Of a stretch of DNA of 48,392 nucleotides, positions 14,301-32,195 are shown piece by piece. Numbering within the stretch: position 1 is the stretch's first letter; every line of letters begins with the position of its first letter. Below the pieces are notes generated by a model. That model made no database searches. It saw nothing but the letters and a program-made list of their open reading frames with translations, and was not told where the DNA came from. The position numbers were made by a program, and so were the translations under genes. The DNA is taken from the NCBI GenBank assembly GCA_965656495.1, contig CBFHKU010000004.1, positions 139,491 through 187,882 of the forward strand, written 5' to 3'. This DNA is from Coraliomargaritaceae bacterium. GTDB taxonomy: Bacteria; Verrucomicrobiota; Verrucomicrobiia; Opitutales; Coraliomargaritaceae.

Positions 14301-14993
14301 TCAACTGCAAATCCAGTCGACCGCCGCCTCGATCCCGAGGGTTCCACGCAAGCGCCACATCACCACGACGGCGGCAATGCCCGCCGCAAGGCGTTGGATA
14401 TTCTGAAGTAAACGCGGCCCGGCGATTCGCTGTAAGCGCATAAACTGGGTCTGCGCAAGCCAGAGCAAAGGCAGGGTTCCCAATCCAAAGCCCACTGCAA
14501 ACTCGGCGCCCTGCAGGGCGGAACCGGTAAAAAGCGCGAGCCCGAAAATCATATAAAGCGGGCCGCAGGGCAGCAAAGGGCTGGCGAATCCGATGAGCCC
14601 CGCCGCCAGTGGTTTACCGAGACTTCGGAAACGCGCCGTCAATCCGCCATAGGCACGTCCCAGCCAGGTCGGCTTTGGGAAAAAACGATCCAAGCGGAAC
14701 GCCACCGCGACAAAAAAGAAAACGAGGAACCAGGGCAGGTAATTCAACCAACTCTCCTGCACCGCCCTTAAAATCACACTGCCAAAGGCGCCCGCCAAAG
14801 CGCCCACGATCAGATAACCCATGAGCTTCGCAAAGTGATACACCGTCAGCACGAGCTGCGGCGAGGCTTCCCCCGAGCGCACCGGCATAAAGGCACAGGA
14901 CAAGGGCCCGCACATCGCCACGCAGTGCACACTGGTCACCAAACCCGCCACAAACGCGGTGCCGCCATTATAAACTGATTCCAACTCAAACAC
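14301..14993 (-). CDS. TauE/SafE / DsbD_2-family membrane protein
   Basis: HCVAMCGPL, LLPCGPLY, FGLGTLP and multiple TM helices. Confidence 0.88.
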   Translation of the reverse strand: MFELESVYNGGTAFVAGLVTSVHCVAMCGPLSCAFMPVRSGEASPQLVLTVYHFAKLMGYLIVGALAGAFGSVILRAVQESWLNYLPWFLVFFFVAVAFRLDRFFPKPTWLGRAYGGLTARFRSLGKPLAAGLIGFASPLLPCGPLYMIFGLALFTGSALQGAEFAVGFGLGTLPLLWLAQTQFMRLQRIAGPRLLQNIQRLAAGIAAVVVMWRLRGTLGIEAAVDWICS

Positions 14994-15063: not shown

Positions 15064-15176
15064 GGTTGGTTGTTCGTTGAAAGTTGGATGTTCGCGTTGC
15101 TTCGCGGGCAATCGTTTCATCCGTAGCCCCCTTACTCTTATTCTTAATCTTAATCTTAATCCTACTCTTACTCTCA
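15064..15176. repeat. Micro-repeat modules, partly inverted relative to the downstream composite repeat
   Basis: GTTGGTTGTTCGTTGAAAGTTGGATGTTCG (7-mer period). CTTACTCTTATTCTTAATCTTAATCTTAATCCTACTCTTACTCT at 15131-15174 is the reverse complement of the TAAGAT-type hexamer module. Confidence 0.8.
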
Positions 15177-15223
15177 ATCCCCTTCAACGATTTGCGCCGT
15201 TGGTAGTTGACCTGATTGCTTAC

Positions 15224-15322
15224 GTAGAAGCGACAATCCTGTCGCTTTCCAGCAACAGGACGTAGAAGCGACACTCTTGTCGCTTTCTTACCCAAGCAAA
15301 GCGGCAGGATTGCCGCTTCCAC
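15224..15322. repeat. Cluster of three REP-like palindromes (GTAG/GTGG + AAGCGRCA-N4-TGYCGCTT)
   Basis: 15224-15248 (+), 15262-15286 (+) and 15298-15322 (-); further minus-strand copies at 15632-15656 and 17432-17456. Confidence 0.85.
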
Positions 15323-15953
15323 GATTTACCGCGCCTTCGTGGTGAACACCTTCCCCTGATGAAGAATATTCTGAACCACAGATGACACAGATTTCCGCAG
15401 ATAATCTTTTACGGTGTCGTGATCTGCGCCCATCTGCGCAATCTGTGGTTTAATTCAATCCAATCGCCCCGTTTCAATGTTCTTCAGAGTAAGATTAAGA
15501 ATAAGAATAAGATTAAGACTTTGGATAATCCCGCCCCCTGCCCATTCGTGTCGATTCGTGTCCATTTGTGGTTCCAACTAACAACCATCAACTAACAACG
15601 CCCTCCCCATTCGTGGTTCCAACTAACAAGCAAAGCGGCAGGATTGCCGCTTCCACGATTTACCGCGCCTTCGTGGTGAACACCTTCCCCTGATGAAGAA
15701 TATTCTGAACCACAGATGACACAGATTTCCGCAGATAATCTTTTACGGTGTCGTGATCTGCGCCCATCTGCGCAATCTGTGGTTTAATTCAATCCAATCG
15801 CCCCGTTTCAATGTTCTTCAGAGTAAGATTAAGAATAAGAATAAGATTAAGACTTTGGATAATCCCGCCCCCTGCCCATTCGTGTCCATTCGTGGTTCCA
15901 ACTAACAACGTTCAACTAACAACGCCCTCCCCATTCGTGGTTCCAACTAACAA
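15293..15953. repeat. Two tandem copies (A 15293-15626, B 15627-15953) of an ~334-bp composite repeat
   Basis: Near-identical direct repeats starting CAAGCAAAGCGGCAGGATTGCC; copy B lacks one 10-mer of the ATTCGTGTC module. Confidence 0.95.
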
Positions 15954-15968
15954 CGTTCCTCACACCAC

Positions 15969-15997
15969 TTGCGATCTGTTCACCCGCAATCTTTAAT
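15969..15997 (+). promoter_or_regulatory. Possible sigma70 promoter for the YhcG gene
   Basis: TTGCGA-N17-TTTAAT in the AT-rich region before 16121. Confidence 0.35.
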
Positions 15998-16120
15998 TTA
16001 CATTATAGTATTTTTGGTTTACTTATATAAATATACCCTACAAAAGATTAAATCGGCAGGTAGTATCGATTCCATGCCTGAAAAATTCACACCCAAGCAA
16101 GCTTACAATTTCGCATGTAA

Positions 16121-17197
16121 GTGAAATCAAAAATTGACAACCTTCATATCATCCAGAGCGATGCAGGCCTTATAGCCGACCTCCGCTCCATGATCACGCA
16201 AACCCGCGAGGGAGTCGCTCAGGTTGCCAATCAGAGCCTAACCCTGCTCTATTGGCGAATCGGCAAGCGGATTCACACAGAAGTTCTTGGAAAGGAACGA
16301 GCTGAATACGGAAAAATGATTGTGTCCGCACTGAGTGCACAATTGCGAGCAGAGTTTGGACATGGCTTCACCAAGCGAAACCTATTTAATATGATCCGAT
16401 TTGCTGAAGTTTTTCCCGATCCTCAGATAGTGCACGCACTGAGTGCACAATTGGGGTGGACTCATTTTCGTACTCTCATTCCAATTAAAGACGAGCTTCA
16501 GCGTAACTTCTACGCCGAAATGTGCCGCGTAGAGCGCTGGAGCACCCGCACCCTCGTCAAAAAAATCGACTCCATGCTCTACGAGCGCACCGCCATTTCC
16601 AAGAAACCCAAGGAAGTCGCCAGAGCAGAACTCGCTGAGCTTCGTGACGAGGACAAGCTCACCCCTGACCTCGTCTTCCGCGATCCCTACCTCCTCGACT
16701 TTCTCGGCCTCCGGGATCGCTACCTTGAGAAGGATCTTGAAGACGCTATTCTGCGCGAACTCGAAACCTTCCTCCTGGAGCTCGGCCAGAGCTTCACCTT
16801 TCAGGCACGCCAGTTCCGCATCCCCATCGATTCAGACGACTTCTACCTCGACCTCCTTTTCTACCACCGCGGGCTCAGGCGCCTCATCGCCATCGACCTC
16901 AAACTCGGCGACTTCCAAGCGGAATACAAAGGCCAAATGGAACTTTACCTCCGCTGGCTCGCCAAACACGAACAGCAACCCGGCGAAAAACCGCCCCTCG
17001 GCCTCATTCTCTGCGCCGGGAAAAAGAAGGAGCAAATCGAATTATTAGAGTTGAACCAGAGCGGCATCCACGTCGCAGAATATTTGACTGCACTCCCTCC
17101 GCGCGAATTGCTCCAGCAAAAACTCCACACCGCCATCGAGATCTCGCGGGCACGATTGGAGCACAATTCTGATGATGACGCAGATTTCCGCAGATGA
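16121..17197 (+). CDS. YhcG/DUF1016 PD-(D/E)XK nuclease-domain protein
   Basis: LYWRIGKRI, GFTKRNLFNMIRFA, LGWTHF, WSTRTL, FRDPYLLDFLGL, EKDLE, FLLELG, DLLFYHRGLRRLIAIDLK, GQMELYL, PPLGLILC. Confidence 0.93.
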   Translation: MKSKIDNLHIIQSDAGLIADLRSMITQTREGVAQVANQSLTLLYWRIGKRIHTEVLGKERAEYGKMIVSALSAQLRAEFGHGFTKRNLFNMIRFAEVFPDPQIVHALSAQLGWTHFRTLIPIKDELQRNFYAEMCRVERWSTRTLVKKIDSMLYERTAISKKPKEVARAELAELRDEDKLTPDLVFRDPYLLDFLGLRDRYLEKDLEDAILRELETFLLELGQSFTFQARQFRIPIDSDDFYLDLLFYHRGLRRLIAIDLKLGDFQAEYKGQMELYLRWLAKHEQQPGEKPPLGLILCAGKKKEQIELLELNQSGIHVAEYLTALPPRELLQQKLHTAIEISRARLEHNSDDDADFRR

Positions 17198-17749
17198 TTG
17201 TTTACAGTGCCGTGATCTGCGCCCATCTGCGCAATCTGTGGTTTAATTCAATCCGATCGCCCCGTTTCAATGTTCGATGTTCGATGCACTTCAGAGTAAG
17301 AGTATGATTAAGACTAAGACTTTGGATAATCCCACCCCTGCCCATTTGTGTCGATTCGTGTCCATTCGTGGTTCCAACTAACAACGTTCAACAAACAACT
17401 ACCTCCCCATTCGTGGTTCCAAACAACAAGCAAAGCGGCAGGATTGCCGCTTCCACGAGATACCGCGCCTTCGTGGTGAACAACTTTCCTGATGAAGAGT
17501 ATTCTGAACCGCAGATGACGCAGATTTTCGCAGATGATTTCTAATGGTACCTTGATCTGCGCCCATCTGCGCAATCTGTGGTTTAATTCAATCCGATCGC
17601 CCCGTTTCAATGTTAGATGTTCGATGCACTTCAGAGTAAGATTAAGAGGAGGAGAAAGAGTATGATTAAGAATAAGAGTTGGACTTAGGGTAATCACAAC
17701 CTTCCCACTTTCATACCTTCAAACTTTTCCACCTTCCTACCTTCCCACC
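17174..17749. repeat. Composite repeat copies C (5'-truncated, 17174-17426) and D (17427-17749, ending in the 8-mer tract)
   Basis: Same module order as copies A/B with point differences. Copy C overlaps the YhcG stop codon; the D tail matches 25-118. Confidence 0.92.
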
Positions 17750-17756
17750 AGAGTCC

Positions 17757-20700
17757 CTACTGACAGGCCTCGCATTCTCCGCCGTTGATCATGGCGTCGA
17801 GGGAACAGGCCTGCTTTTCAGCTTCGGTAAATTCCTTCTTCGGCTCGGCAGCGGGGACGGTTTGATTTCCGGCGCGACCCCTTACTTCCTTCTTAACGCT
17901 GGTTGTAGCCTTCTCGATATTGGAGGCCCCGAGGGTGCGCAGGTAATAAGTGGTCTTGAGGCCCTTGTGCCAGGCTTCGCGATACATGTGTGAGAGGGTC
18001 TTGATGTCGGGCTGGGCGAGGAAGAGATTGACCGATTGAGACTGGTCGATCCATTTCTGGCGTCGCGCGGCGGCGTCGATGAAGTATTGGTATTCGATGG
18101 TGAAGGCGGTCTTGTATTTGTCGCGAAGGTCATCGGGGATGCCCTCAACGGAGTCCAGTTCACCGTCGAAGTATTTGAGCTGGTCGAGCATCTCAGCATT
18201 CCATAGGCCACGATCCTTGAGGTCGCGAACGAGCGGCCCATTGAGTACAATGAAGTCGCCGGAAAGGTTACTCTTCACGAAGAGGTTCTTATAGGTGGGC
18301 TCAATGCAGGGGGTGGTGCCCATGATATTGGAAATCGTGGCAGTGGGCGCGATTGCGAGGACGTTGGAATTGCGCATGCCCTGTTTGGCAATCTTTTCGC
18401 GCAGGGGTTTCCAGTCCATTTTTCCGGCGCGGGGTACCTTGACTTCTACGCCACGTTCTTCCTGAAGGAGGTCGAGGGTATCCTGCGGCATGAGGCCACG
18501 GTCCCACTTGGAACCCTTGTAGGTGCTGTAGGTGCCATGCTCGGCGGCGAGGTCGGAGGATGCCTCGTAAGCGTAGTAGGCAATGGCTTCCATGAACTCG
18601 TCGTTGAAATCGACGGCGGCCTCGGAGGCGAAGGGAATGCCCTTGCGGTAGAGGGCGTTTTGGAGCCCCATGATACCGAGCCCGACGGGGCGGTGACGGC
18701 TATTGGCGGTCTTGGCAGCCTCGGTGGGATAGAAGTTGATGTCGATGACGTTATCGAGGGCACGCACTGCGATACTGATGGTGTCGCGAAGTTTCTCGTG
18801 ATCGAGGTTTCCATCGCTGTCGAGGTGCGAATCCAACACGACCGAGCCGAGGTTACAAACGGCGGTTTCTTCGTCGCTGGTGTTGAGGGTGATCTCGGTG
18901 CAGAGGTTGGAACTGTGAATGACGCCGGTGTGGTCCTGGGGGCTGCGGAGGTTACAGGGATCCTTGAAGGTGATCCAGGGGTGCCCGGTTTCGAAGATCA
19001 TGCGGAGCATGGATTTCCAAAGGTCGATGGCGGGCATTTTTTGTCCGACGATTTCACCGCGCTCGGCTTGGGCTTCGCATTCGAGGTAGCGTTCTTCGAA
19101 GGCCTTGCCGTAGAGTTCGTGCAGGTCGGGTGCTTCGTTGGAACGGAAGAGGGTCCAGTCCTCGCGAGCCTCCATGCGCTTCATGAAGAGGTCGGGAATC
19201 CAGTTGGCGGTGTTCATGTCGTGGGTACGACGGCGGTCGTCCCCGGTGTTTTTGCGGAGTTCGAGGAAATCGAGGATGTCGTTGTGCCAGGTTTCGAGGT
19301 AAGCGCAACCGGAACCCCGGCGTTTGCCGCCCTGATTGACCGCGACGAGTTGGTCGTTGTGGAGCTTCAGGAAGGGAATGACGCCCTGGCTTTCGCCGTT
19401 GGTGCCCTTGATGAAACCACCGGTGCCGCGCACCGCAGTCCAGGAACCACCGAGTCCGCCCGCCCATTTGGAAAGGAAGGCGTTGTCGGCGATGCCTCGG
19501 TGCATGATGGATTCGATGCTATCGTCGACCTTGTAGAGATAACAGGAAGAAAGCTGTGAATGGAGGGTGCCGGAGTTGAAGAGCGTCGGCGTGGAGGAAC
19601 AGAAGCGGCGGCTTTTGTAGAGGTTGTAGAGGCGAATGACGTAGCCCTCGCGATCTTCCTTTTCGGCATGGAAGAGCCCCATCGAGACGCGCATCCAGAA
19701 GAACTGTGGCACTTCGAGGCGGCGGTGCGATTTGCTCGTTTTATCAACGATGAGGTAGCGGTCGTAAAGGGTTTGAATACCAAGGTAATCGAAGTCGAGG
19801 TCGGCAGATGGATCAAGGGCATCGCCCAGGCGCTCAAGGTCGTATTCGAGCAGCTTCGGGTTGAGGCGTTCGATTTCAATGGCGCGCTTGAGGTAGGTTT
19901 TCAAGCCACGGCGGTGGGCATCCTTGAGTTGATCCACCCCATCGCGCAGGATGTCCCAATCGAGGACTTCCTCGTAGATGAAGGTGAGGAGGATGCGGGC
20001 CGCGAAACGTGCGAAGTCGGCGTCGCGCTCGATGAGGGCTTTCGCGTTGAGAATGATGGTTTTCTTGAGGTCGCTGCGCTGCATCTCAGGGTAGATCGAG
20101 CGGCGCAGTTCCGATTCCACGTCCTCGGGGCTCATGTCGATTTTCAGACCGATCATGGCGTATTCGATGCGGCGCTTAAGGTCGACCCCGTCCCAGAAGT
20201 TGCTGTCACCATTAGCCTCGGTGACCACGATCATGGAGTCCTGCTGGGTTTCGTCCTGCGCGGCGACACCGCTCTCCTCACGGAGACGGGCGCGGTGCGC
20301 ACGGTAAAGAATGTAGGATTCCGCAACTTTGAAGTGACCCTGGCGCATCATTTCTTCCTGCACGCTGTCCTGCACATCCTCGATATTGATGAAAGCCTGC
20401 CCGGAACGGTTGAGGCGATCCGTGACGGCCTGCGCAATCGCGACCGCGGGTGACGAATCGAGCTCGAGGGAGAGAAAGGATTTGCGAACCGCGATTTCGA
20501 TCTTGGCCTCATTCCATGGAACGACCTGCTTGTTGCGGCGGATCAGACGAATGGATACCGGAAGCCGCTCCGTTTCGGTATCGCGCTGTTGGCGGGAAAG
20601 AACGAGGCTCTTGGCAACATCATAGGCGTCGTTTTCGATGAGGGCCTTTTCAATGAGGAGGTTGATGTCGTGCGCGGTAAGTTTTAACTCCTTGCCCTGC

Positions 20701-21011
20701 TCGATTTGCGCAGCGAGCACTTCCCCGACGTTTTCCGCGACCTTCGCGACGAACTGGCGATTCATCTCGGTAAAGATTTCCTCTTCCTGACGCGACAGCA
20801 GCAAATCCGTCAGGGCGGTGCCGATGGTTTCTGCGATTTCGGCGAGGTCGAAGGCACGCTCTTCACCGGCTGCTTCGACTTTGATCTCAGGACGGTTGAG
20901 GCGGTCTTCGTTAATCACGCCGCGCCAATCAAAGCGGGGCTTGTCTTCCTTGGGAGTAGAGGTGAAACGCTTCAGTTCGAGATCTTCGTCAAATGCCAGT
21001 TTGTGAATCAT
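17757..21011 (-). CDS. nrdA: Class I ribonucleotide reductase alpha subunit with multiple N-terminal ATP-cones
   Basis: TPTLFNSG, SSCY, SSNLCTEI, VCNLGS, APTATIS, DQSQS, KTTYYLR and C-terminal CEACQ. Confidence 0.97.
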   Translation of the reverse strand: MIHKLAFDEDLELKRFTSTPKEDKPRFDWRGVINEDRLNRPEIKVEAAGEERAFDLAEIAETIGTALTDLLLSRQEEEIFTEMNRQFVAKVAENVGEVLAAQIEQGKELKLTAHDINLLIEKALIENDAYDVAKSLVLSRQQRDTETERLPVSIRLIRRNKQVVPWNEAKIEIAVRKSFLSLELDSSPAVAIAQAVTDRLNRSGQAFINIEDVQDSVQEEMMRQGHFKVAESYILYRAHRARLREESGVAAQDETQQDSMIVVTEANGDSNFWDGVDLKRRIEYAMIGLKIDMSPEDVESELRRSIYPEMQRSDLKKTIILNAKALIERDADFARFAARILLTFIYEEVLDWDILRDGVDQLKDAHRRGLKTYLKRAIEIERLNPKLLEYDLERLGDALDPSADLDFDYLGIQTLYDRYLIVDKTSKSHRRLEVPQFFWMRVSMGLFHAEKEDREGYVIRLYNLYKSRRFCSSTPTLFNSGTLHSQLSSCYLYKVDDSIESIMHRGIADNAFLSKWAGGLGGSWTAVRGTGGFIKGTNGESQGVIPFLKLHNDQLVAVNQGGKRRGSGCAYLETWHNDILDFLELRKNTGDDRRRTHDMNTANWIPDLFMKRMEAREDWTLFRSNEAPDLHELYGKAFEERYLECEAQAERGEIVGQKMPAIDLWKSMLRMIFETGHPWITFKDPCNLRSPQDHTGVIHSSNLCTEITLNTSDEETAVCNLGSVVLDSHLDSDGNLDHEKLRDTISIAVRALDNVIDINFYPTEAAKTANSRHRPVGLGIMGLQNALYRKGIPFASEAAVDFNDEFMEAIAYYAYEASSDLAAEHGTYSTYKGSKWDRGLMPQDTLDLLQEERGVEVKVPRAGKMDWKPLREKIAKQGMRNSNVLAIAPTATISNIMGTTPCIEPTYKNLFVKSNLSGDFIVLNGPLVRDLKDRGLWNAEMLDQLKYFDGELDSVEGIPDDLRDKYKTAFTIEYQYFIDAAARRQKWIDQSQSVNLFLAQPDIKTLSHMYREAWHKGLKTTYYLRTLGASNIEKATTSVKKEVRGRAGNQTVPAAEPKKEFTEAEKQACSLDAMINGGECEACQ

Positions 21012-24220: not shown

Positions 24221-24293
<73 letters not shown>

Positions 24294-24310
24294 GGACCTG
24301 AATTTTGGAC

Positions 24311-24386
<76 letters not shown>

Positions 24387-24402
24387 CTCAATCCCAGTAA
24401 AT

Positions 24403-24432
24403 AAGCGGTCTCCAGACGGAGGCCGCTTTTTT
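24403..24432 (+). terminator. Intrinsic terminator after the tRNA pair
   Basis: AAGCGGTCTCC-AGAC-GGAGGCCGCTT followed by a T-run. Confidence 0.85.
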
Positions 24433-24647
24433 GTGCCCAATCGAAATATATTAATAGGCGATTTATACGGGACTCATTTAACCTGCGATGACCCTGAGAC
24501 GGTAGTTATTAAAGTTTTTGAATCCGTATGCTCTACGCTGAATGGCTCAACTTTGTAAAAGTGAAAGGTTTTTAGCTTCATACTAAAGGGGCCAAGCGCA
24601 AAAAGTCCATCGTGTGAAGTCGCATGCGCAGCATGAAAAGACCGCGC

Positions 24648-25880
24648 TTAACCCAGCACCTTTCTCAACCCAAGTATTCGTTTCTGAATCAAACGACCCA
24701 CCGCGACTTCTGCCTCGCTTTTAGAGTTTCCAGACTGGACCTCGACGATTTCCGTGAACTGAAGAACCTGCTTCCGGGCCTGCTTTTTCGAAAACCCGAT
24801 CTCGCCCCAGAGTCGTTCCCAGTCATTCAACCTCAACTTATCGGGCAGATATTGTCCGCCTATTTTCATCGCCATTTTGGGCGAAAGTTCAGGGTAAGTT
24901 GCAGTGCTGACGCAATCGTAGAAGGGAGCCAGCTCGACGACGCGCCCTCCCCGCACCTCCCGATACAGCAGGGAAAAATTTTTGCCATGTGCATCATTGT
25001 TCCCGATGAGGTAGTTAAAGACGACACCATTAAATAATTGAATCAAATCACGACCAGGCGCAGTGGCAGCACGTCGCACCAAGTCGAAACAATCGCTCAA
25101 CCCAGGACCACCTTCATTCTGATACTTGATTCGCGTGGGGATCCCCAGGGCCTGACAGAAGTCTTCCTGGTGCAAACGCAGGATACTGCCCTCCGCATCG
25201 ACCCTTCGGTCGTATCGCTCGACCAGCAGGCAACGATGTTTACCAAAGTTGGCCGGCACCGCACGCGATGCGGGCAGGCCACACGCCCCGGCCAGTCGAA
25301 GACAATAGGCTTCATTCTCTACCAAATGCGGAAAGCGTTCTATCTCAGGTTTGAGGATATGGGTGCTGGGCGACTCGTTCAGCGGCAGGGCAAAACCTTC
25401 TTTTCCCTTGTAGAGTGCGATCTTGTTCTGTGCCCCCGCCAGCGACAGCCGAACCTCGCCTTGCCCCGCAAGCAAGGGTCGCTGCGGCAACTGATCAAGC
25501 AGATCGACGAGTTCCACATCGGAGACGGATTGGTAGTCTTGAGCATGCGACACCTCCGGAGCATCCGCTTCCAATAAGCTGACGGCACCCGCGCATTCGC
25601 CACCGATCTCGCGCAGCATCGCAAAATCGTTCCGTGCACTGATCCCGAGATTTCGAGCAATAATTTCGCGGTTGTATTCTTCAGGCAGCAGGCCTCCAAA
25701 AAATCCCACGCACTGGCGCTCATCAAATAGCCGATCCTCGAGCGGCAGAGATTGCGAAAGCGGATGCGCCCCCACTTTCTGCAGCCAGTCTTTCGTGTAA
25801 CGAAACTCAATCCGCCCAGTTGACGTCTGCTCAAGGTTTCCGACTGGCTGACCCAGTAAATAAACCTGCAGCGTTTTCAT
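24648..25880 (-). CDS. hipA: HipA-family Ser/Thr kinase toxin
   Basis: N-terminal couple domain (LSQSLP, FFGGLLPE, GGECAGA), SLAGAQNK, HILKP, RLHQEDFCQALG, GNNDAHGKNFS, LAPFYD. Confidence 0.95.
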   Translation of the reverse strand: MKTLQVYLLGQPVGNLEQTSTGRIEFRYTKDWLQKVGAHPLSQSLPLEDRLFDERQCVGFFGGLLPEEYNREIIARNLGISARNDFAMLREIGGECAGAVSLLEADAPEVSHAQDYQSVSDVELVDLLDQLPQRPLLAGQGEVRLSLAGAQNKIALYKGKEGFALPLNESPSTHILKPEIERFPHLVENEAYCLRLAGACGLPASRAVPANFGKHRCLLVERYDRRVDAEGSILRLHQEDFCQALGIPTRIKYQNEGGPGLSDCFDLVRRAATAPGRDLIQLFNGVVFNYLIGNNDAHGKNFSLLYREVRGGRVVELAPFYDCVSTATYPELSPKMAMKIGGQYLPDKLRLNDWERLWGEIGFSKKQARKQVLQFTEIVEVQSGNSKSEAEVAVGRLIQKRILGLRKVLG

Positions 25881-26107
25881 GATCCCTCACCCCCTGACGA
25901 CGCGTCAGACCCACGCAAGCCGATCCGTATGCCAAGCGCAGCCAGCACATCCAGCGTCTTGCCGAGCTGGCAGGTCGGCTTGCCTCGCTCCAATTCGGAG
26001 ATGAAGCGCTGGGCGGTATTCGCGATCATTGCCAGATCCGACTGCGTGAGCCCCTGCGACTTGCGTGTCTCACGTATCAGCGCTCCTATCTCTTGACTCG
26101 TCTTCAT
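25877..26107 (-). CDS. hipB: HipB-like XRE HTH antitoxin
   Basis: IRETRKSQGLTQSDLA..FISELERGKPT; 4-bp overlap with hipA. Start at MKTSQ (26107). Confidence 0.9.
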   Translation of the reverse strand: MKTSQEIGALIRETRKSQGLTQSDLAMIANTAQRFISELERGKPTCQLGKTLDVLAALGIRIGLRGSDASSGGEGS

Positions 26108-26116
26108 ATCAAATAA

Positions 26117-26226
26117 TACAGAACGGTAATAAAATACACCGAGGCGCACGATGCAATCAAAATTTTCCCGAACGGTAAAATATCAAAAGATTCTCAACCT
26201 CAGCCCCATTATGATACCGACCGGTA
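26117..26226. promoter_or_regulatory. Three palindromic operators (TACCGNNCGGTA) upstream of hipB
   Basis: TACAGAACGGTA (26117), TCCCGAACGGTA (26166) and TACCGACCGGTA (26215), spaced exactly 49 bp apart. Confidence 0.8.
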
Positions 26227-26403: not shown

Positions 26404-27408
26404 TTACAGGCCCTCCTGTCGGTCCATCCATTCGACGACAAGGAGGTGTGGTACGGTAAGGGATGAAATCACCACGAGGTAGATCCCTATGAATGCGCTG
26501 AGGTCGACCGATCCGCGAAGGAGAAGCAGGACTACCGCGAGGATAAGAACGGAAGCGAGGGTAAAGGGGAGCGCCTGGCAATAGAATCGTTTGAATTGTG
26601 CAAAGGCTGTGCCGCATTCGTCTTCGCTGCCTTCGTAGCGGATGAGACGCAAGACATGCCGGAAACCATGCCACAGGCAAAAGTACAGGCCAATCGCAAG
26701 GACTGGTGGTATCAGCACAAAGAACGCGATAAGCCCGAGGTCTTCCGCCAAGCGCAGCTTCCGTTGTTCTCCTTGGTAGCTTAGGTAGGCAAGCTCGCTC
26801 AAAAGAAGCAGGATCAGGGCGATCAAAATGATGAATGGAAGTGTCGTGCCCAATTCATATTCATAGCCAAAGGCAATAGAACAACTGTTCAGAATTGCCT
26901 CGGTTGCATCCGGAAAGGCCAAAAAGGGAATTCCGATGGGGAACATTCCGCGCAGGAAGCTGTGGTTGAACTTTAGAATTCGGGGGGTGGTTTGAAGTGC
27001 CGCAGGATTGAGCAAGCCTTCAAAGGCGAGGTCCGCCCTCCCCCAATGATAGATCGTGATTCCGAGAAATAGAATCACTGCCACAAGTGGAGCGAGCCAC
27101 CACAAGCAAAGCATCGCGACCACAAAACTCAGATAGATGAGACAAACCAGCGTGAGGGCTTTAAGGCTAAGGCTGCGCTTTGCGAGTCCCAGAACCACTA
27201 GATGATCAATCGCACCGTGCGGGAGGCCAAACAGAAGCACACTGGCAAGCATCGGGAGGTAAAGCGGCAGACCCGCATCGAGGTCCAGCACCACCATTAC
27301 CAGGCCGAGGAGACCCCCCGCGAGCGCGAGGCCATTTGCAAAACGCGTTCCCATGCTGGGTTTACCGGCAGGCGGCTTGAGCGGGCTCCAATGAAAAATC
27401 GGTCTCAT
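26404..27408 (-). CDS. blh: Beta-carotene 15,15'-dioxygenase (Brp/Blh)
   Basis: GLPHGAIDH, YHWG, YFCLWHGFRH and LTVPH His ligands; multiple TM helices; last gene of the rhodopsin operon. Confidence 0.93.
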   Translation of the reverse strand: MRPIFHWSPLKPPAGKPSMGTRFANGLALAGGLLGLVMVVLDLDAGLPLYLPMLASVLLFGLPHGAIDHLVVLGLAKRSLSLKALTLVCLIYLSFVVAMLCLWWLAPLVAVILFLGITIYHWGRADLAFEGLLNPAALQTTPRILKFNHSFLRGMFPIGIPFLAFPDATEAILNSCSIAFGYEYELGTTLPFIILIALILLLLSELAYLSYQGEQRKLRLAEDLGLIAFFVLIPPVLAIGLYFCLWHGFRHVLRLIRYEGSEDECGTAFAQFKRFYCQALPFTLASVLILAVVLLLLRGSVDLSAFIGIYLVVISSLTVPHLLVVEWMDRQEGL

Positions 27409-28136
27409 ACGCGCCGTAAGCTATGCCAAAGTACAAGGCCCTGAGCCAAGAGCAGACTGGTTATAAAGAAAAAGAAGGTTTCCTCAAAAGGCAGCTGTCC
27501 CATTTCCCAACCCGTGCGAGTCATTGGATTAATGCTCCAAATCCCGTCCGCAATCGCAAAGGCATCTGCGATTGAAAAATAGAGCGTAGGCAAAAGGCTT
27601 GCCACAAGAATAAGCCCAAGCTTTTGCTGCAGTGCCCGTGGATCAAAAAACCACTGGAGCACGAGCGGCGGCACAAACCAGAGCAAGGTGAGCGAAAGGT
27701 AACCGAATCGTTCCTGTTTTAACAGACTGGCAGCAAGGAGCATCAGCAGGATGCCTGCGATTAGGACGATGGCGCGACTGCCCATCTGCCGCTCGCGCCA
27801 AGTGCTCTCTATCTTGAGCCCTCGCAGAAAAAAGGTCGCGAATAAGGTGCTGTTAAAAAGCGGCATCAAAATAAAAAAGAGGTATTCTTCGAGTGGCACG
27901 TAGCCCATTACCCCGATCACGCGCTCCGCGCCATAGGACCATATCCCCCGCGCCACGATAAAATTATCCCAGGGCGTCGTCCAAAGGAAGGCGATCAAAG
28001 CGAGTATGGCGCTACCCACCCAATGCCATTGCAAGAGCATGGACTGCGGTTTGAGGTGCGCGCGGGCTTTCAAATATAAAAGGAGAAGGCAGGTCGGTGC
28101 AACCACCCACAGCAGAAGAAAAGTCAGGTAACTCAT
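27405..28136 (-). CDS. crtY: Membrane-integral lycopene beta-cyclase (fused CrtYc/d type)
   Basis: Two repeats, TTPWDN..GIW..PLEEYLFF and D.FAI..GIW..LPFEETFFF. Start MSYLTF at 28136 overlaps the crtB stop. Confidence 0.88.
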   Translation of the reverse strand: MSYLTFLLLWVVAPTCLLLLYLKARAHLKPQSMLLQWHWVGSAILALIAFLWTTPWDNFIVARGIWSYGAERVIGVMGYVPLEEYLFFILMPLFNSTLFATFFLRGLKIESTWRERQMGSRAIVLIAGILLMLLAASLLKQERFGYLSLTLLWFVPPLVLQWFFDPRALQQKLGLILVASLLPTLYFSIADAFAIADGIWSINPMTRTGWEMGQLPFEETFFFFITSLLLAQGLVLWHSLRRV

Positions 28137-29065
28137 GGGGTTTTGAGTGAGGAGCTGCTGACCCCCGCAGCCTCCAATTTTTGACGGAGTTCCATACAAT
28201 GCGCGGGCGGGCTTGGGTCGGTCCATTGCTTTGCCTGCGTGGGCGGTGCAAAACAAAGGGTCCGCAAACAAAGCTTGATTTTTTCACCAGCCGAAAGAGT
28301 TCGGCGTTTTCGCCACGCCCCACCCCCAAGTCGAAGCAGGCTTTGCCCGATTTCACGATAGAGCATGGTGGCAAGCAGGACCGCCCGCCGGTTGCGCGCT
28401 CCGATAAACCAGAAACCCTCCAAGGCGCTATCATAGAAGCTTTCCGCGAGAGACAAGAGGCGTTCAATGGCGGCATCCACTGTTTCGATTGAGTCAGAAT
28501 CGCCCGCAATGGCAGCCTCAATAACGGCGGGCTCAATCCATGCTCGCGGGAGGTAATAACGCCCAAGCTCAGCGTCCTCGGGAACATCCCGCGCGATATT
28601 GGTCAATTGAAGGGCGATACCCAAATCGACCGCAAAAGGAATGGCACGCGGGTCGTGCACCCCAAGCACCGGACACATCAAGACCCCAACCGTGCCCGCC
28701 ACCCCAAAGGCGAAGGCAAGCAATTCATTTTCATCCTCCACCCGGCGCGTTCCGCAGTCGTCACGGAGGGCTTGCGCGAGGAGCGTGGCTGCTTCAAGGG
28801 AGAGTCCGCGTTTGGCGGCAAGGTCGAGAAAATCAAGCACCACCGGGTCGGTCGCACTTACGGCGGGATCGAGTTCGCTAATAACGCGTTCCAGCGCGGC
28901 GGTCTCGCCCTGCGCGGAGGCATCCGCTAGATCATCGAGGACTCGGCAAAAATAATAGAGACGCGCTACTGCGTTCTGGTCCTCACGCGAAAAGAGCTGC
29001 GCCGCCAGCGAAAAGGTGCGGCTCTTAGCGCGAAAAAGCGCGGCAGGATTTGTTTCGGGTGGCAT
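28133..29065 (-). CDS. crtB: Phytoene synthase
   Basis: SRTFSLAA, YYFCRVLDDLAD, VAGTVG, LGIALQLTNIARDVPEDA..GRYYLP. Confidence 0.95.
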   Translation of the reverse strand: MPPETNPAALFRAKSRTFSLAAQLFSREDQNAVARLYYFCRVLDDLADASAQGETAALERVISELDPAVSATDPVVLDFLDLAAKRGLSLEAATLLAQALRDDCGTRRVEDENELLAFAFGVAGTVGVLMCPVLGVHDPRAIPFAVDLGIALQLTNIARDVPEDAELGRYYLPRAWIEPAVIEAAIAGDSDSIETVDAAIERLLSLAESFYDSALEGFWFIGARNRRAVLLATMLYREIGQSLLRLGGGAWRKRRTLSAGEKIKLCLRTLCFAPPTQAKQWTDPSPPAHCMELRQKLEAAGVSSSSLKTP

Positions 29066-30534
29066 CAGGCAGGCGGGCTTACTCGGTCTAAGACTTTGGC
29101 AGAGCAGAGAACGCCCGGTACGCCCGCCCCCGGATGCGTGCCCGCTCCAACAAGATAAAGATTCTGGAGGGCCTCCGAGCGGTTGTGGAAACGGAACCAG
29201 GCGGATTGAGAAAATATTGGAGAAACAGAAAACCCGCTCCCCTTTGAGCTCAGGTAATCCTGCGAAAAATCCTGTGGCGTCATGAAAAAATCGGAGCGAA
29301 TGGACTGTTGTAATCCGGGCAGAATGGTGCGGTCCAGGGCTGCGACAATGCGGTCGCGTAATTGTGGCCCCTCCACTTCCCAGTCAATTTGTGCCTGCAT
29401 ATTTGGAACCGGAGCAAGGACATAGAAGGAATCGTGCCCCTCCGGCGCGAAGCTCGCGTCGGTAGCGGTCGGGCGATGCAGGTAGAGGGAGAAATCTTCG
29501 GGCAAGGTGGAACCGTGAAAGATTTCATGAATGAGATCCTTGAAGCGTTCGCCTAGCCAAATGGTGTGGTGAGCGACCTCGGGGTATTGTCGGGCCGTCC
29601 CAAAATAAAGGACGAATAAACCCATGGATTGCTGCATGCGCATGCGTTTTGCCCTGAAACTCCAAGGGAGGGATGTGGGTTTTATCATCTTGGAATAGAG
29701 GTGCAGCGGATCGGCATTGGAGACCAGGAGATCGGTCGCAAAGGCATCGCCGTCATCCAATTCAACACCAGTGGCACGGCGACCTTGCGTCGTAATGGAA
29801 TCAACCGTCACCCCGGTGCGTATTTCAATCCCGGTTTCCAGCATGAGTTTGGTGAGGGCATCGACGATTGCGCCGGTGCCGCCCTCCGCAAAATAGATAC
29901 CCCACTTACGCTCCAGGTAGTGGATCAGACTGTAGATGCAGGTCGTTTCAAAGGGGTTGCCGCCCACCAAGAGTGGATGGATCGAAAAAGCGCGCCGCAG
30001 GTGCTCATTCTTTAAGTATTTGGATACAAGTTGCCAGACAGTGCGGTGGCAACCAAGTCGTGCAAGATTAGGAACCTGTTTGAGCATCGTGCCCACCGAG
30101 TGAAAGGACTGGTCTGCCAGTTCAGTGAAGCCAATATCAAAAATGCGCTTTGAATGATCCAACAGTTTGCGGTAGCCCTCGCAATCGTCCGGTTCAAAGG
30201 CATGGATTGCCGCTTGGGTGTCCTCCACCGTACCACCGTAATCAAATTCCCGACCATCGTGAAAATGAAATCGATACCAAACATCCAGCGGAATGAAATT
30301 CAGGTAATCCTCGCGCCGTTTGCCAAACAACTCGAAGAGTTCATCAAAGAGAAAAGGAGCGGTAATGACGGTGGGTCCCGCATCGTGGCGGTAACCATCG
30401 CGTTCAAAAACCTGGGCGCGACCTCCCAAACGGGAGCAGCGATCCAGGAGACTGACGTCATAGCCACGGGCGCGAAGGCGGAGGGCGGCTGCAATTCCAC
30501 CAAAGCCCCCGCCTATGACCGTAGCCTTTGGCAT
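29065..30534 (-). CDS. crtI: Phytoene desaturase
   Basis: VIGGGFGG FAD motif, DAGPTVIT, LLVGGNPF, LYLVGAGTHPGAGVPGV. Confidence 0.96.
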   Translation of the reverse strand: MPKATVIGGGFGGIAAALRLRARGYDVSLLDRCSRLGGRAQVFERDGYRHDAGPTVITAPFLFDELFELFGKRREDYLNFIPLDVWYRFHFHDGREFDYGGTVEDTQAAIHAFEPDDCEGYRKLLDHSKRIFDIGFTELADQSFHSVGTMLKQVPNLARLGCHRTVWQLVSKYLKNEHLRRAFSIHPLLVGGNPFETTCIYSLIHYLERKWGIYFAEGGTGAIVDALTKLMLETGIEIRTGVTVDSITTQGRRATGVELDDGDAFATDLLVSNADPLHLYSKMIKPTSLPWSFRAKRMRMQQSMGLFVLYFGTARQYPEVAHHTIWLGERFKDLIHEIFHGSTLPEDFSLYLHRPTATDASFAPEGHDSFYVLAPVPNMQAQIDWEVEGPQLRDRIVAALDRTILPGLQQSIRSDFFMTPQDFSQDYLSSKGSGFSVSPIFSQSAWFRFHNRSEALQNLYLVGAGTHPGAGVPGVLCSAKVLDRVSPPA

Positions 30535-30537
30535 CCT

Positions 30538-31419
30538 TTAGGTGTAGCTTTGCCTGACTTGTTCGATCAGTTTCCCGATGCCCGCTCCGCTGTGCTCCGG
30601 CAGTTGCGCCGCAAGCTCAAGTGCTTCATTGAGCACAGAGTCCGCGACTTGACGCGCTGCCATCTCCGCCTCGACGAAACTCAAGTCCGTCTCAAAGGCA
30701 TTTACAATGTTGGCATCGACTGCCTGCAGACGGTCGGTGGCACGGTCTTTCAAATCATCGAGCGCCTGATAACCCAAGCCGAAGAGTTTCCCGAGGCGTC
30801 GGGCGGTTTCGAGCGCTTCCTTGTGACCCGCCGCAAGGAGCGGGAGACTCACGGAAAGTCCAAATAACGGTCCTGATTTCATGGATGCCGTTAGTTTAAC
30901 CTGCTCGACCGCCTCAATCTTCGTATCGTCCTGATCCCAGGTTTGACCCAGAATCGTGTCGGCGACCGCCTGATGCACCTCCATAGTCAGGGAACCAAGC
31001 TGCTCAACATTTTTGATTTGGCTCAAGGAAACAAAAGCAGTGGTCGTAAGGCGCAGGGTCAATCCCAGGGCAACATCACGCCCAAAAAGCGCACATACCG
31101 TCGGGTGTCCACGGCGTTCAAGGGCGCTGTCCTGAAAATCATCCAGCACCAGCGAGGCGTTGTGCAGCGCCTCCACGCAGGCCGCGAGGCATTGCGCGGT
31201 ATGCGAATCCAAGCCAAGCGCCTGCGAGGCATCCAAGCTGAGGGAGGCCCGCATTTGTTTGCCAGAAGCTTGGAAGTGATGCTCAAAGGCATCACGAATC
31301 GGATCGTCATCACGAGAGGAGGTGACCTCTCCGAAATGATTTCGTATTAGGCAGATAACCCCCGACAGCAGGGAGCTGTCGGGGGCTACGATAAAAGAAC
31401 TATCGGTTTTCATTACCAA
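30538..31419 (-). CDS. crtE: Geranylgeranyl pyrophosphate synthase
   Basis: GKQMRA, HNASLVLDDFQD..RRG, GYQALDDLKD. Confidence 0.88.
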   Translation of the reverse strand: MVMKTDSSFIVAPDSSLLSGVICLIRNHFGEVTSSRDDDPIRDAFEHHFQASGKQMRASLSLDASQALGLDSHTAQCLAACVEALHNASLVLDDFQDSALERRGHPTVCALFGRDVALGLTLRLTTTAFVSLSQIKNVEQLGSLTMEVHQAVADTILGQTWDQDDTKIEAVEQVKLTASMKSGPLFGLSVSLPLLAAGHKEALETARRLGKLFGLGYQALDDLKDRATDRLQAVDANIVNAFETDLSFVEAEMAARQVADSVLNEALELAAQLPEHSGAGIGKLIEQVRQSYT

Positions 31420-31436
31420 TAGCTAAAGACCGTGAC

Positions 31437-32195
31437 TTAAGCGGCAATGGATTGACCGCCTCCTTGAGACTTCTTCAATGCGATCACGAAGATCAAGACA
31501 CCAAAGACAGCCTTCGCAACGATGTCAGCAATTGAGTAGCCCACTTCTACGAAGGTGGTGGCGTCGCCGCCGTCAATACCGAGCATGGGGAAGATGAAGA
31601 CAATCGGATAGAAAGCCCAGGAAGCCACTACGAGGAAGCGTGCTTTGCCGACCAGGGAACGGACCGACTCCGGTTGCTGTGCTTGAGCATCTTTTAAACC
31701 TACAAAGAGTTCGTAAACAATCACGATGAAAGGAACCATGGAAATCGCCCAGAAGATCCAGCGGGTGCTGTTTACGTCGGAAATTTCACCGGGATAACCA
31801 AATATAATCATGATCGCCGCAAGAGATCCCAACTTGATTGATTTGTTGGCGGTTTCCGCAGCACTGAGTTTCATAACCAAAATGAGCTCAATGAGAAGGA
31901 GGGGCACTGTTAGGAGCCAGTCAACGTAGCGGTAGGCAGGATTGAAGGCTTTACCGGTCGCAACGAGTACGCCGTCAACAATCGCATACGCCTCTTCCCA
32001 GCTAGCGAATATACGCCAGTAGTGGTAAAGAGCAATGAAGGTAACAAGTCCGCTGATAGTAACGGCAGTCTTGTATTGGTCAGCAACCTGAGAGCGGTTG
32101 ATCCACAAGAACGCGGTAGCCGCGCCCATTGCTGCGATGGTGAGCGAGAAAAAATTGCTCACGAGGTGGTATTGTCCAATGGTTAGTTCTGTCAT
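31437..32195 (-). CDS. Microbial rhodopsin, xanthorhodopsin-like DTE proton pump
   Basis: Seven TM helices; RYVDWLLTVPLLLIE (R89, D92, T96, E103), H58, GYPGE, WAFYP, and DIVAK (retinal-binding K228). Confidence 0.96.
   Translation of the reverse strand: MTELTIGQYHLVSNFFSLTIAAMGAATAFLWINRSQVADQYKTAVTISGLVTFIALYHYWRIFASWEEAYAIVDGVLVATGKAFNPAYRYVDWLLTVPLLLIELILVMKLSAAETANKSIKLGSLAAIMIIFGYPGEISDVNSTRWIFWAISMVPFIVIVYELFVGLKDAQAQQPESVRSLVGKARFLVVASWAFYPIVFIFPMLGIDGGDATTFVEVGYSIADIVAKAVFGVLIFVIALKKSQGGGQSIAA

Follow-up and report, generated by a model that had tools for sequence, protein, structure and literature searches.

The interval between the DsbD_2-domain gene and nrdA in a Coraliomargaritaceae bacterium (assembly GCA_965656495.1, 2.06 Mb in 31 contigs; G000 below, its contigs C1, C4, C5 and so on) carries an array of short repeats that encloses a nuclease gene, yhcG. 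The array occupies positions 15064-17749 of a stretch of 48,392 nucleotides of contig CBFHKU010000004.1, called the window here, with the DsbD_2-domain gene (14301-14993, -) to its left and nrdA (17757-21011, -) to its right. I propose, with roughly even confidence, that it is a mosaic island of the kind known as bacterial interspersed mosaic elements (BIMEs) and neisserial intergenic mosaic elements (NIMEs), built with the help of a tyrosine transposase associated with repetitive extragenic palindromes (REPs), a RAYT, and that yhcG is an opportunistic passenger in it. On this reading the island is not a dedicated gene-capture system. The argument draws on the origin of the modules, their copying between islands, their polarity, the recent gain of yhcG and the junctions of that gene.

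The modules are lettered A (the REP), C (an inverted repeat CAGAT/ATCTG), B (the arm between these two), D (ATGTTCG), E (TAAGAT), F (ATTCGTGTCS), G (CAACTAA), H (an arm of the 8-mer ACCTTCCC) and I (a TTCGCGTTGC arm). An earlier note on this DNA placed modules of these types beside GxxExxY nuclease, four-helix-bundle and RAYT genes, and matching them to the flanks of intact genes bears this out, G excepted. Profile searches of G000 find four four-helix-bundle genes, five GxxExxY genes, two Y1 transposases and one yhcG; one of the first was confirmed as TIGR02436 and one of the second as TIGR04256. By their flanks in G000, C, F, I and more loosely B are the arms of four different GxxExxY genes, and E and H are arms around four-helix-bundle genes. 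For D the match is in G106, of a different genus, where such arms lie on both sides of a TIGR02436 gene. The parents carry their arms inverted, and the sense found in the array is that of the right-hand, closing arm. The unit is thus not a concatenation of target sites for several gene families, as the note supposed: its modules are terminal pieces of the elements themselves, for the most part just the closing arm. Inverted pairs are seen for C and for the outer E and G arms; B, D, F, H and I are unpaired. In other genera geneless E hairpins stand directly after stop codons.

The REP is a short palindrome tagged GTAG or GTGG, with 183 hits in G000 and none for a reversed control. It flanks a RAYT on contig C9 (C9:69018-69623) and that gene's closest homologues (50-55% identical) in G009, G083 and G096. 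The C9 RAYT scores above the Pfam cut-off for Y1_Tnp, its NHVH and Y motifs are visible, and REP arrays lie on both sides. Six congeners have 0-40 REP hits, against the 183 in G000 with its RAYT, and no match to the RAYT was found in their fragmented assemblies. The C9 RAYT and the REPs that precede it share one open frame of 341 codons (L010 1495-2424, -), which resembles the REP insertions that the available text of PMC6006769 reports for subclass 2.4 tnpA-REP genes. A second RAYT-like gene (L011, G000:C15:9121-10173) has a different REP family of its own on both sides.

Overall, the array consists of two full units, a leader with yhcG and two partial units. At its left end (15065-15109) are an inverted CAACTAA-type arm (G-), a short ATGTTCG arm (D+) and the TTCGCGTTGC arm (I+), a GxxExxY-type end that matches the reverse complement of the arm upstream of the GxxExxY gene at C1:149172; G- and D+ are common to the allele of G006 described below. 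An opening TAAGAT arm (E-, 15131-15179) follows, of the four-helix-bundle cassette type and equal to the arm upstream of the four-helix-bundle gene C3:105086. Next come three GT(A/G)G-tagged REPs, two + and one -, with a REP doublet (15224-15322; z -7.5), equal to the REPs around the C9 RAYT and its homologues. Unit 1 (15293-15626, +) is complete and runs REP, B arm, empty C hairpin, D, E, F, G, F, G. Its C module (15374-15450; folding z = -5.3) has both arms of a GxxExxY cassette, matching those around the GxxExxY gene C8:35181, and a geneless 19-nt loop. Unit 2 (15627 to about 15955, +), likewise complete, is a recent tandem copy, spaced at 334 bp and identical to unit 1 over 268 nt.

An AT-rich leader (15970-16139, +), 81% identical to C5:170349-170519, provides the GTG start of yhcG, a DUF1016 PD-(D/E)XK nuclease gene (16121-17197, +; 358 aa) whose final codons and stop lie within the left C arm of unit 3. 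Unit 3 (17174-17426, +) reads C-D-E-F-G-F, begins within the left C arm, overlaps the stop codon and lacks REP and B; unit 4 (about 17427-17690, +) reads REP-B-C-D-E, lacks F and G and then runs into the closing ACCTTCCC arm (H+, 17698-17749). This last arm, of four-helix-bundle cassette type, equals the one downstream of the four-helix-bundle gene C3:150269 and lies 7 nt from the nrdA stop. The four C loops represent three pedigrees: those of units 1 and 2 are alike, that of unit 3 is the loop of the orthologous unit in G006, and that of unit 4 resembles a copy at C5:151 kb. Since the loops differ in origin and units 1 and 2 are copies, the locus seems to have been patched from imported pieces plus one local duplication.

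Much of this had been described in the earlier note from the letters of the sequence. The modules it named are all present in the order it gave, and the 334-bp spacing is confirmed. It counted two copies before yhcG and two after; four units are indeed there, of which only units 1 and 2 are complete. The ATGTTCG 7-mer is present too, reduced in units 1 and 2 to TTCAATGTT. Missing from its list were the H arm (17698-17749) and several extras at the left end (15065-15322), namely the inverted CAACTAA arm, the TTCGCGTTGC arm, the inverted TAAGAT arm and two more REPs. The left-hand gene, taken there for tauE, scores as Pfam DsbD_2. The note was right that the window holds no transposase: none appears among the 39 open reading frames (ORFs) scanned, and the cognate RAYT sits elsewhere in the genome. 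It was also right that this is not a CRISPR array, the units being head-to-tail near-copies without unique spacers (cas genes were not searched genome-wide). An Rfam scan of the window found no family over the array, only two tRNAs. Judged on the REP, C, F and G patterns, the array is far beyond chance. A genome shuffled by 3-mers in 1-kb blocks contains these patterns 1, 0, 1 and 0 times, and the real genome 201, 22, 34 and 49 times; a loose B pattern is not discriminating (93 in the shuffled genome, 115 in the real one).

The note would have been refuted by modules confined to this site; they recur throughout the genome. A BLAST search with the array region gives 880 hits, and a screen of G000 by 13-mers finds 112 repeat regions, 41 of which have at least three module types and are here called composite islands (22.5 kb in total). 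Distant islands have in common multi-module segments of 185-270 nt, linkers included, at 85-97% identity. A B-C-D-E-F segment at C5:151 kb, for example, matches the array over 269 nt at 86% and unit 4 over 185 nt at 96.8% (C5_150642), and a G-F-REP-B-C segment at C1:400 kb matches over 219 nt at 91%. The REP pattern is present in 34 of the 41 islands. Its inverted doublet, A+A-, occurs 54 times in islands, including the left end of the array, and the 334-bp unit has a single REP. Among the within-island duplications listed, 37 of 39 include a REP in the period, several rows representing the same array. Nested cores of the form E(REP REP)E are found in 4 of the 41 islands, and G006 has the complete form, G(E(REP REP)E)G (L353); this suggests that such cores are seeds from which one half was amplified. 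Two loci of G106 (L342 and L349) have tandem arrays with units of about 170 bp and 255 bp in at least five copies, made of other GTAG REPs and ATGTTCG arms. Another composite island (C4:138732-139623) reaches into the window with its tail (1-130); just beyond the window's edge it has a 277-bp duplication and a scaffold gap.

Then there is the matter of direction. In the 31 islands with at least three scorable arm types, 115 of 129 type-level calls face the same way, where the null mean is 90 and 0 of 20,000 simulations did as well. The polarity shows no pattern relative to the direction of flanking genes (13, 11, 8 and 7 islands over four classes). It follows GC skew in 32 of 40 islands when judged by 30-kb skew, ties included. 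With ties dropped and on the 12 largest contigs only, the count is 27 of 31 for islands scored by contig (p 3e-5) and 19 of 21 once they are merged into clusters. D and E arms are strand-biased (32:5 and 28:17) though not C-rich. Unpaired REP feet lie 29:9 on the G-rich strand, and paired ones 77:73. Because the G-rich strand holds an excess of genes (776 of 1404), of tRNAs (22 of 35) and of GGGNAGGG motifs outside islands (360 of 418), it is taken as the leading strand, and it follows that the lagging-strand template would be the one on which unpaired REPs show their tagged form. IS200/IS605 transposases favor this template, according to the available text of PMC3333891. In a ribosomal-protein region, C1:227000-273000, the GC skew is reversed (intergenic -0.18), and at 271-275 kb two islands of opposite polarity lie on either side of the region's right edge; the region is possibly an inversion with an island at the breakpoint.

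The site was also compared among relatives. In G001, G004 and G005 the interval is only about 170, 155 and 325 bp long and the island is absent. In G006, the closest relative (about 95% identical), two contig ends overlap by 55 nt and together spell a single unit, G-D-B-C-D-E-H, lacking yhcG; the site is rearranged in G002 and broken in G003. Four metagenome runs were compared as assembled contigs rather than as reads, the runs containing the stretch being labelled marine, aquatic, aquaculture or freshwater. The major population of run X11 (depth 74-78, many differences) joins 17281 to 17629 and 15064 to 17464, a one-unit allele, and its minor population (depth 12) has yhcG with 0 differences. 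The comparison of alleles that the earlier note called for has therefore turned up empty, one-unit and filled forms. yhcG was not found in any of six congeners, and it is present in 14 of 100 genomes of the family. The note's view of the nuclease gene as cargo stands: with the gene missing from the six congeners and from the one-unit allele of a sister population, yhcG was, on this comparison, recently gained at the site. In G005 an extra gene, NYN-like by eye, lies on the other side of the DsbD_2 gene (L054 450-1090).

That the gene encodes a YhcG nuclease, as the note had it, is confirmed by matches to DUF1016_N (E 2.7e-47) and YhcG_C (E 2.5e-45), both far over cut-off. Its relatives in other lineages are up to 82% identical, many of the closest in records labelled Verrucomicrobiota. 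They align from residue 6 or 7, where the closest have an ATG of their own. One other place in the genome matches the 170-nt leader; it lies at C5:170.4 kb, with an island on one side and a RelE-like toxin gene on the other, and the similarity stops just past TTGACA. At its 3' end yhcG passes into the C arm at GATGAC, and the stop is a TGA inside the arm. Both the start and the stop codon are supplied by island-linked DNA, and the joints, one inside the leader and one inside the C arm, do not mark a fixed crossover point.

Elsewhere yhcG keeps different company. Of 36 related loci, 15 lie beside a type I restriction-modification gene and 2 beside another methylase (44 of 139 flanking frames scanned). 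A direct repeat spans yhcG in 9 of 72 loci with full flanks. In one (L156) it is a 225-nt, 97% composite repeat of hairpins and short tandem arms, and in another (L112) the repeats measure 69-77 nt and include hairpins resembling REPs as well as 7-mer arms; of the other seven, some appear, by position and not each checked, to be duplicated coding gene ends. These two loci indicate that the layout of unit, cargo and unit has arisen with other modules in other lineages. I considered whether yhcG itself belongs to an arm-bounded cassette family and rejected the idea: the studied modules lie within 600 bp at only 1 of 80 relatives. Five relatives in restriction-modification contexts (L092, L074, L126, L109, L120) are directly preceded upstream by arms of GxxExxY type, by a GxxExxY gene or by a four-helix-bundle-like frame that bears arms, and donors of yhcG may already have carried arm homology. 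In L156, four 23-nt direct repeats (1467-1581) adjoin the left composite unit and resemble the end of an IS21-family element.

How might such an island arise? The starting point would be what is seen in G000 today, the coexistence of REPs and their RAYT with GxxExxY and four-helix-bundle cassettes, the latter two leaving geneless shells near gene ends. To go by the nested forms, insertion of REP doublets and shells into each other would have come next and produced seeds of the type G( E( REP REP )E )G. A REP and the arms on one side of it were then duplicated in tandem and, as the segments common to distant islands attest, copied from island to island, leaving stacks of arms that face the same way. 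The engine was likely RAYT nicking and strand transfer on the lagging-strand template, aided by host recombination at shared modules; the available text of PMC3333891 and PMC8266576 has TnpA-REP cleaving and joining single-stranded BIME DNA in vitro. Finally yhcG, whose junctions are plain and whose family is frequent in type I restriction-modification operons, would have been joined by way of short homologies, with an island-linked leader providing its start and a C arm its stop.

The best of the alternatives does without the RAYT. Modules of the same origin would have been multiplied by replication slippage and by RecA or microhomology recombination (ectopic conversion, transforming DNA), and their orientation set by selection or composition, for instance by FtsK-orienting motifs. 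I regard this as possible rather than probable. In its favor, both yhcG junctions and the left junction lie at short shared words, and microhomology joints require no transposase. REP-free duplications occur, in two of those listed and in a GxxExxY triplet at C4:74845, and other yhcG relatives are flanked by direct duplications of neighboring DNA (the 9 loci in 72). Such points weigh against the part I give the RAYT and against the wider account, and there are others. The C9 RAYT falls under the cut-off of NCBIfam NF047646, with 50 bits against 80. Composites are present without a match to it in G006, G003 and G005, though these assemblies are fragmented. Alignment ends are only mildly enriched at REPs (25% against 19% of positions). 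No parent gene of G was found in eight genomes searched with one spacing window, where the sole match was a nested geneless island. The islands descend from few ancestral composites and are not independent. Orientation is weaker when called locally from codons (24 of 33, p 0.013), and neither B (17:16) nor G (29:27) has a strand bias. The + strand of the islands is C-rich (skew -0.14), so composition or selection could set their orientation.

Selection for a motif deserves particular attention. GGGNAGGG, the consensus of the FtsK-orienting polar sequences (KOPS) of E. coli, is polarized 360:58 outside islands and 12:0 inside them on the 12 largest contigs, with all 12 on the G-rich strand and five copies in the studied array. 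It does not suffice as the only cause of polarity, for the islands without it are still oriented in 20 of 24 cases. Against composition stand the D and E arms, which are biased without being C-rich. Slippage and recombination also leave aside that most duplicated units include a REP and that the largest REP expansion is in the genome with the RAYT. I keep a RAYT-assisted mosaic as the preferred account.

That account could be pushed further. The REP-RAYT pair may recruit the arms of unrelated hairpin cassettes into strand-polarized units, spread copies of these around the chromosome at the replication fork and capture genes by employing them as portable sites of crossover. I hold this to be rather doubtful. 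If it were true, the blocks of unit, yhcG and unit, made of different modules in three distant lineages, would have come about independently by one general, undescribed route of gene acquisition, and RAYTs would have a function at the level of the host.

Somewhat less credible still, and unlikely on present evidence, is a platform selected for gene capture, in which the units are portable crossover sites for a specific recombinase and unit-cargo-unit blocks pass from strain to strain or are excised as circles. The arrangement around yhcG has that appearance, as do the composite repeats around its relatives in L156 and L112, and one leader stands ahead of two unrelated cargo genes. Accessory genes between islands are, moreover, missing at matching sites in congeners. 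VapBC, between or beside islands, was not found at the matching site in G001, G004 and G005; a RelE-like pair, a second gene pair and ORF6N, all by islands, are missing at those of G005 and partly of G001; and a BrnT gene by an island is missing at that of G004 and G005. The islands may thus be called a gene hotspot, in part. Other results speak against a dedicated platform. The earlier note imagined a hotspot where the parent gene families come and go, and none of their 11 genes lies inside any of the 41 islands (0 of 5 GxxExxY, 0 of 4 four-helix-bundle, 0 of 2 RAYT). Toxin matches are many for a genome of 2.06 Mb (20 PIN, 6 BrnT, 2 ParE, 2 PIN_3 and 1 Gp49, an incomplete list in that the PIN search missed one island-side VapC). 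They are not enriched near islands: 2 of 31 lie within 600 bp, compared with 29 of 537 small genes (p = 0.5), and the counts within 0.6, 1 and 2 kb are 2, 2 and 3 (p 0.47-0.61). Genes next to islands have higher, not lower, codon adaptation and GC (by a simple gene caller that missed some low-GC genes) and in this resemble well-adapted housekeeping genes, and one island-side cargo cluster includes a tRNA-Leu gene (C5:166075), an ordinary integration site. The joints of yhcG cut through a module, and no recombinase gene adjoins the locus. The scan of 39 window ORFs shows no site-specific recombinase; an integron integrase was not looked for in the remainder of the genome.

Could the cassette proteins themselves be responsible, the GxxExxY nuclease or the four-helix-bundle proteins moving or joining shells in trans, with REPs as passengers? 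The five GxxExxY and four four-helix-bundle genes are intact and have matching arms, and geneless shells are common in other genera. This is nonetheless very unlikely: such movement predicts paired arms, yet the islands mostly have one arm of each pair, and the literature search turned up no activity for either family.

The locus is most improbably an assembly artefact or chimera, for although another island of the assembly has a scaffold gap (C4:139391) and no metagenome contig covers the whole array, the window is free of N, units 1/2, 3 and 4 differ in sequence, and in each of runs X1 and X11 a single contig crosses the leader, the gene and the junction with the C arm with 0 differences. 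yhcG is present in runs from four studies, one of which could be the source of the assembly. The depth of the gene is near that of its flanks (38.5 against 41 in X1, 7.5 against 10.6 in X4), and contigs of the collapsed unit have about 1.5 times the depth of the flanks (61 in X1, 13.5 in X4). The duplication that gave units 1 and 2 is supported by these depths, not proven. Elsewhere in the window, a tRNA-Lys and a tRNA-Thr are followed by a HipA-family toxin gene with a small upstream ORF (24221-26149), and then a rhodopsin gene with a carotenoid/retinal cluster (26404-32195; Bac_rhodopsin, polyprenyl synthase, amino-oxidase family, phytoene synthase, lycopene cyclase, BCD).

What does the array offer to those who work on such elements? 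G000 links the questions of how REPs spread and what role RAYTs have in the host to that of the origin of bacterial tandem repeats of 6-11-mers. The mechanism of REP dissemination is called unresolved in the available text of PMC8266576, and heptamer repeats are little studied (PMC4692102). G000 provides 41 islands of traceable, asymmetric modules, one candidate enzyme, a measurable strand bias and, at one site, empty, one-unit and filled alleles found together in environmental samples. Asymmetric modules keep a trace of orientation, as symmetric REP doublets cannot, and the targeting of the lagging strand by RAYTs becomes testable from genomes alone. The array suggests a little-described way of shuffling DNA and gaining genes. 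What the locus contributes is a composite polarized throughout the genome, its strand bias, the traffic of segments from island to island and a captured gene for which both empty and filled alleles exist. A literature search, which reached few subscription papers and no supplements, found no report that ties the arms to genes or describes mosaics of GxxExxY and four-helix-bundle arms; the REP itself may already be in the supplementary lists of REP families of PMC3733652 and PMC6006769.

Integron cassette arrays, CRISPR arrays and composite transposons likewise present a gene between direct repeats, or tandem repeats with hairpins. None of them fits, there being no unique spacers, no integrase or transposase among the window ORFs scanned, and joints of the cargo that fall inside a module. 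The cassettes of TIGR02436/PF05635 and TIGR04256/PF13366 are closer, for B, C, F and I (GxxExxY) and D, E and H (four-helix bundle) are their terminal arms and C is an intact empty shell. The system for comparison there is that of four-helix-bundle proteins and the intervening sequences of 23S rRNA (PMC4990558, from the available text). Unlike an arm-bounded cassette, the island has no gene of either family and has mostly the closing arm, so that it is a secondary structure made from their remains.

With NIME arrays the island has in common that it is syntenic and variable in length and that a short palindrome alternates with many families of modules (PMC1797815). According to the available text of that source, NIME arrays (dRS3 with RS elements) are reported in Neisseria only, the dRS3 consensus is ATTCCC-N8-GGGAAT, and the arrays are proposed to aid the exchange of adjacent genes through a recombinase or homologous recombination. 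The island is not itself a NIME: its recurring palindrome is a GT(A/G)G REP and not the dRS3 consensus, its modules derive from identified elements that carry genes, and the enzyme proposed for it is of the HUH tyrosine transposases, not a phage recombinase.

The likeness to REPs, BIMEs and REPINs (REP doublets forming hairpins) is closer. The array has hairpins with a GT(A/G)G tag, REPs in inverted doublets, a cognate RAYT with the same REPs on both sides, an intergenic site and tandem units of REP and flank whose copy number varies between relatives. GTAG REPs are known in Verrucomicrobia (PMC3733652), and tandem REPIN units with their flanks, as well as REPINs inserted in REPINs, have been described (PMC3116915), both as given in the available text. 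It differs from REPs and BIMEs, as far as the published descriptions available go, in that the DNA between REPs consists of the ends of two other element families and most units have a single REP, and in that the arms face one way, the islands are oriented by replichore and a gene of 1.1 kb is fused to the array at both ends.

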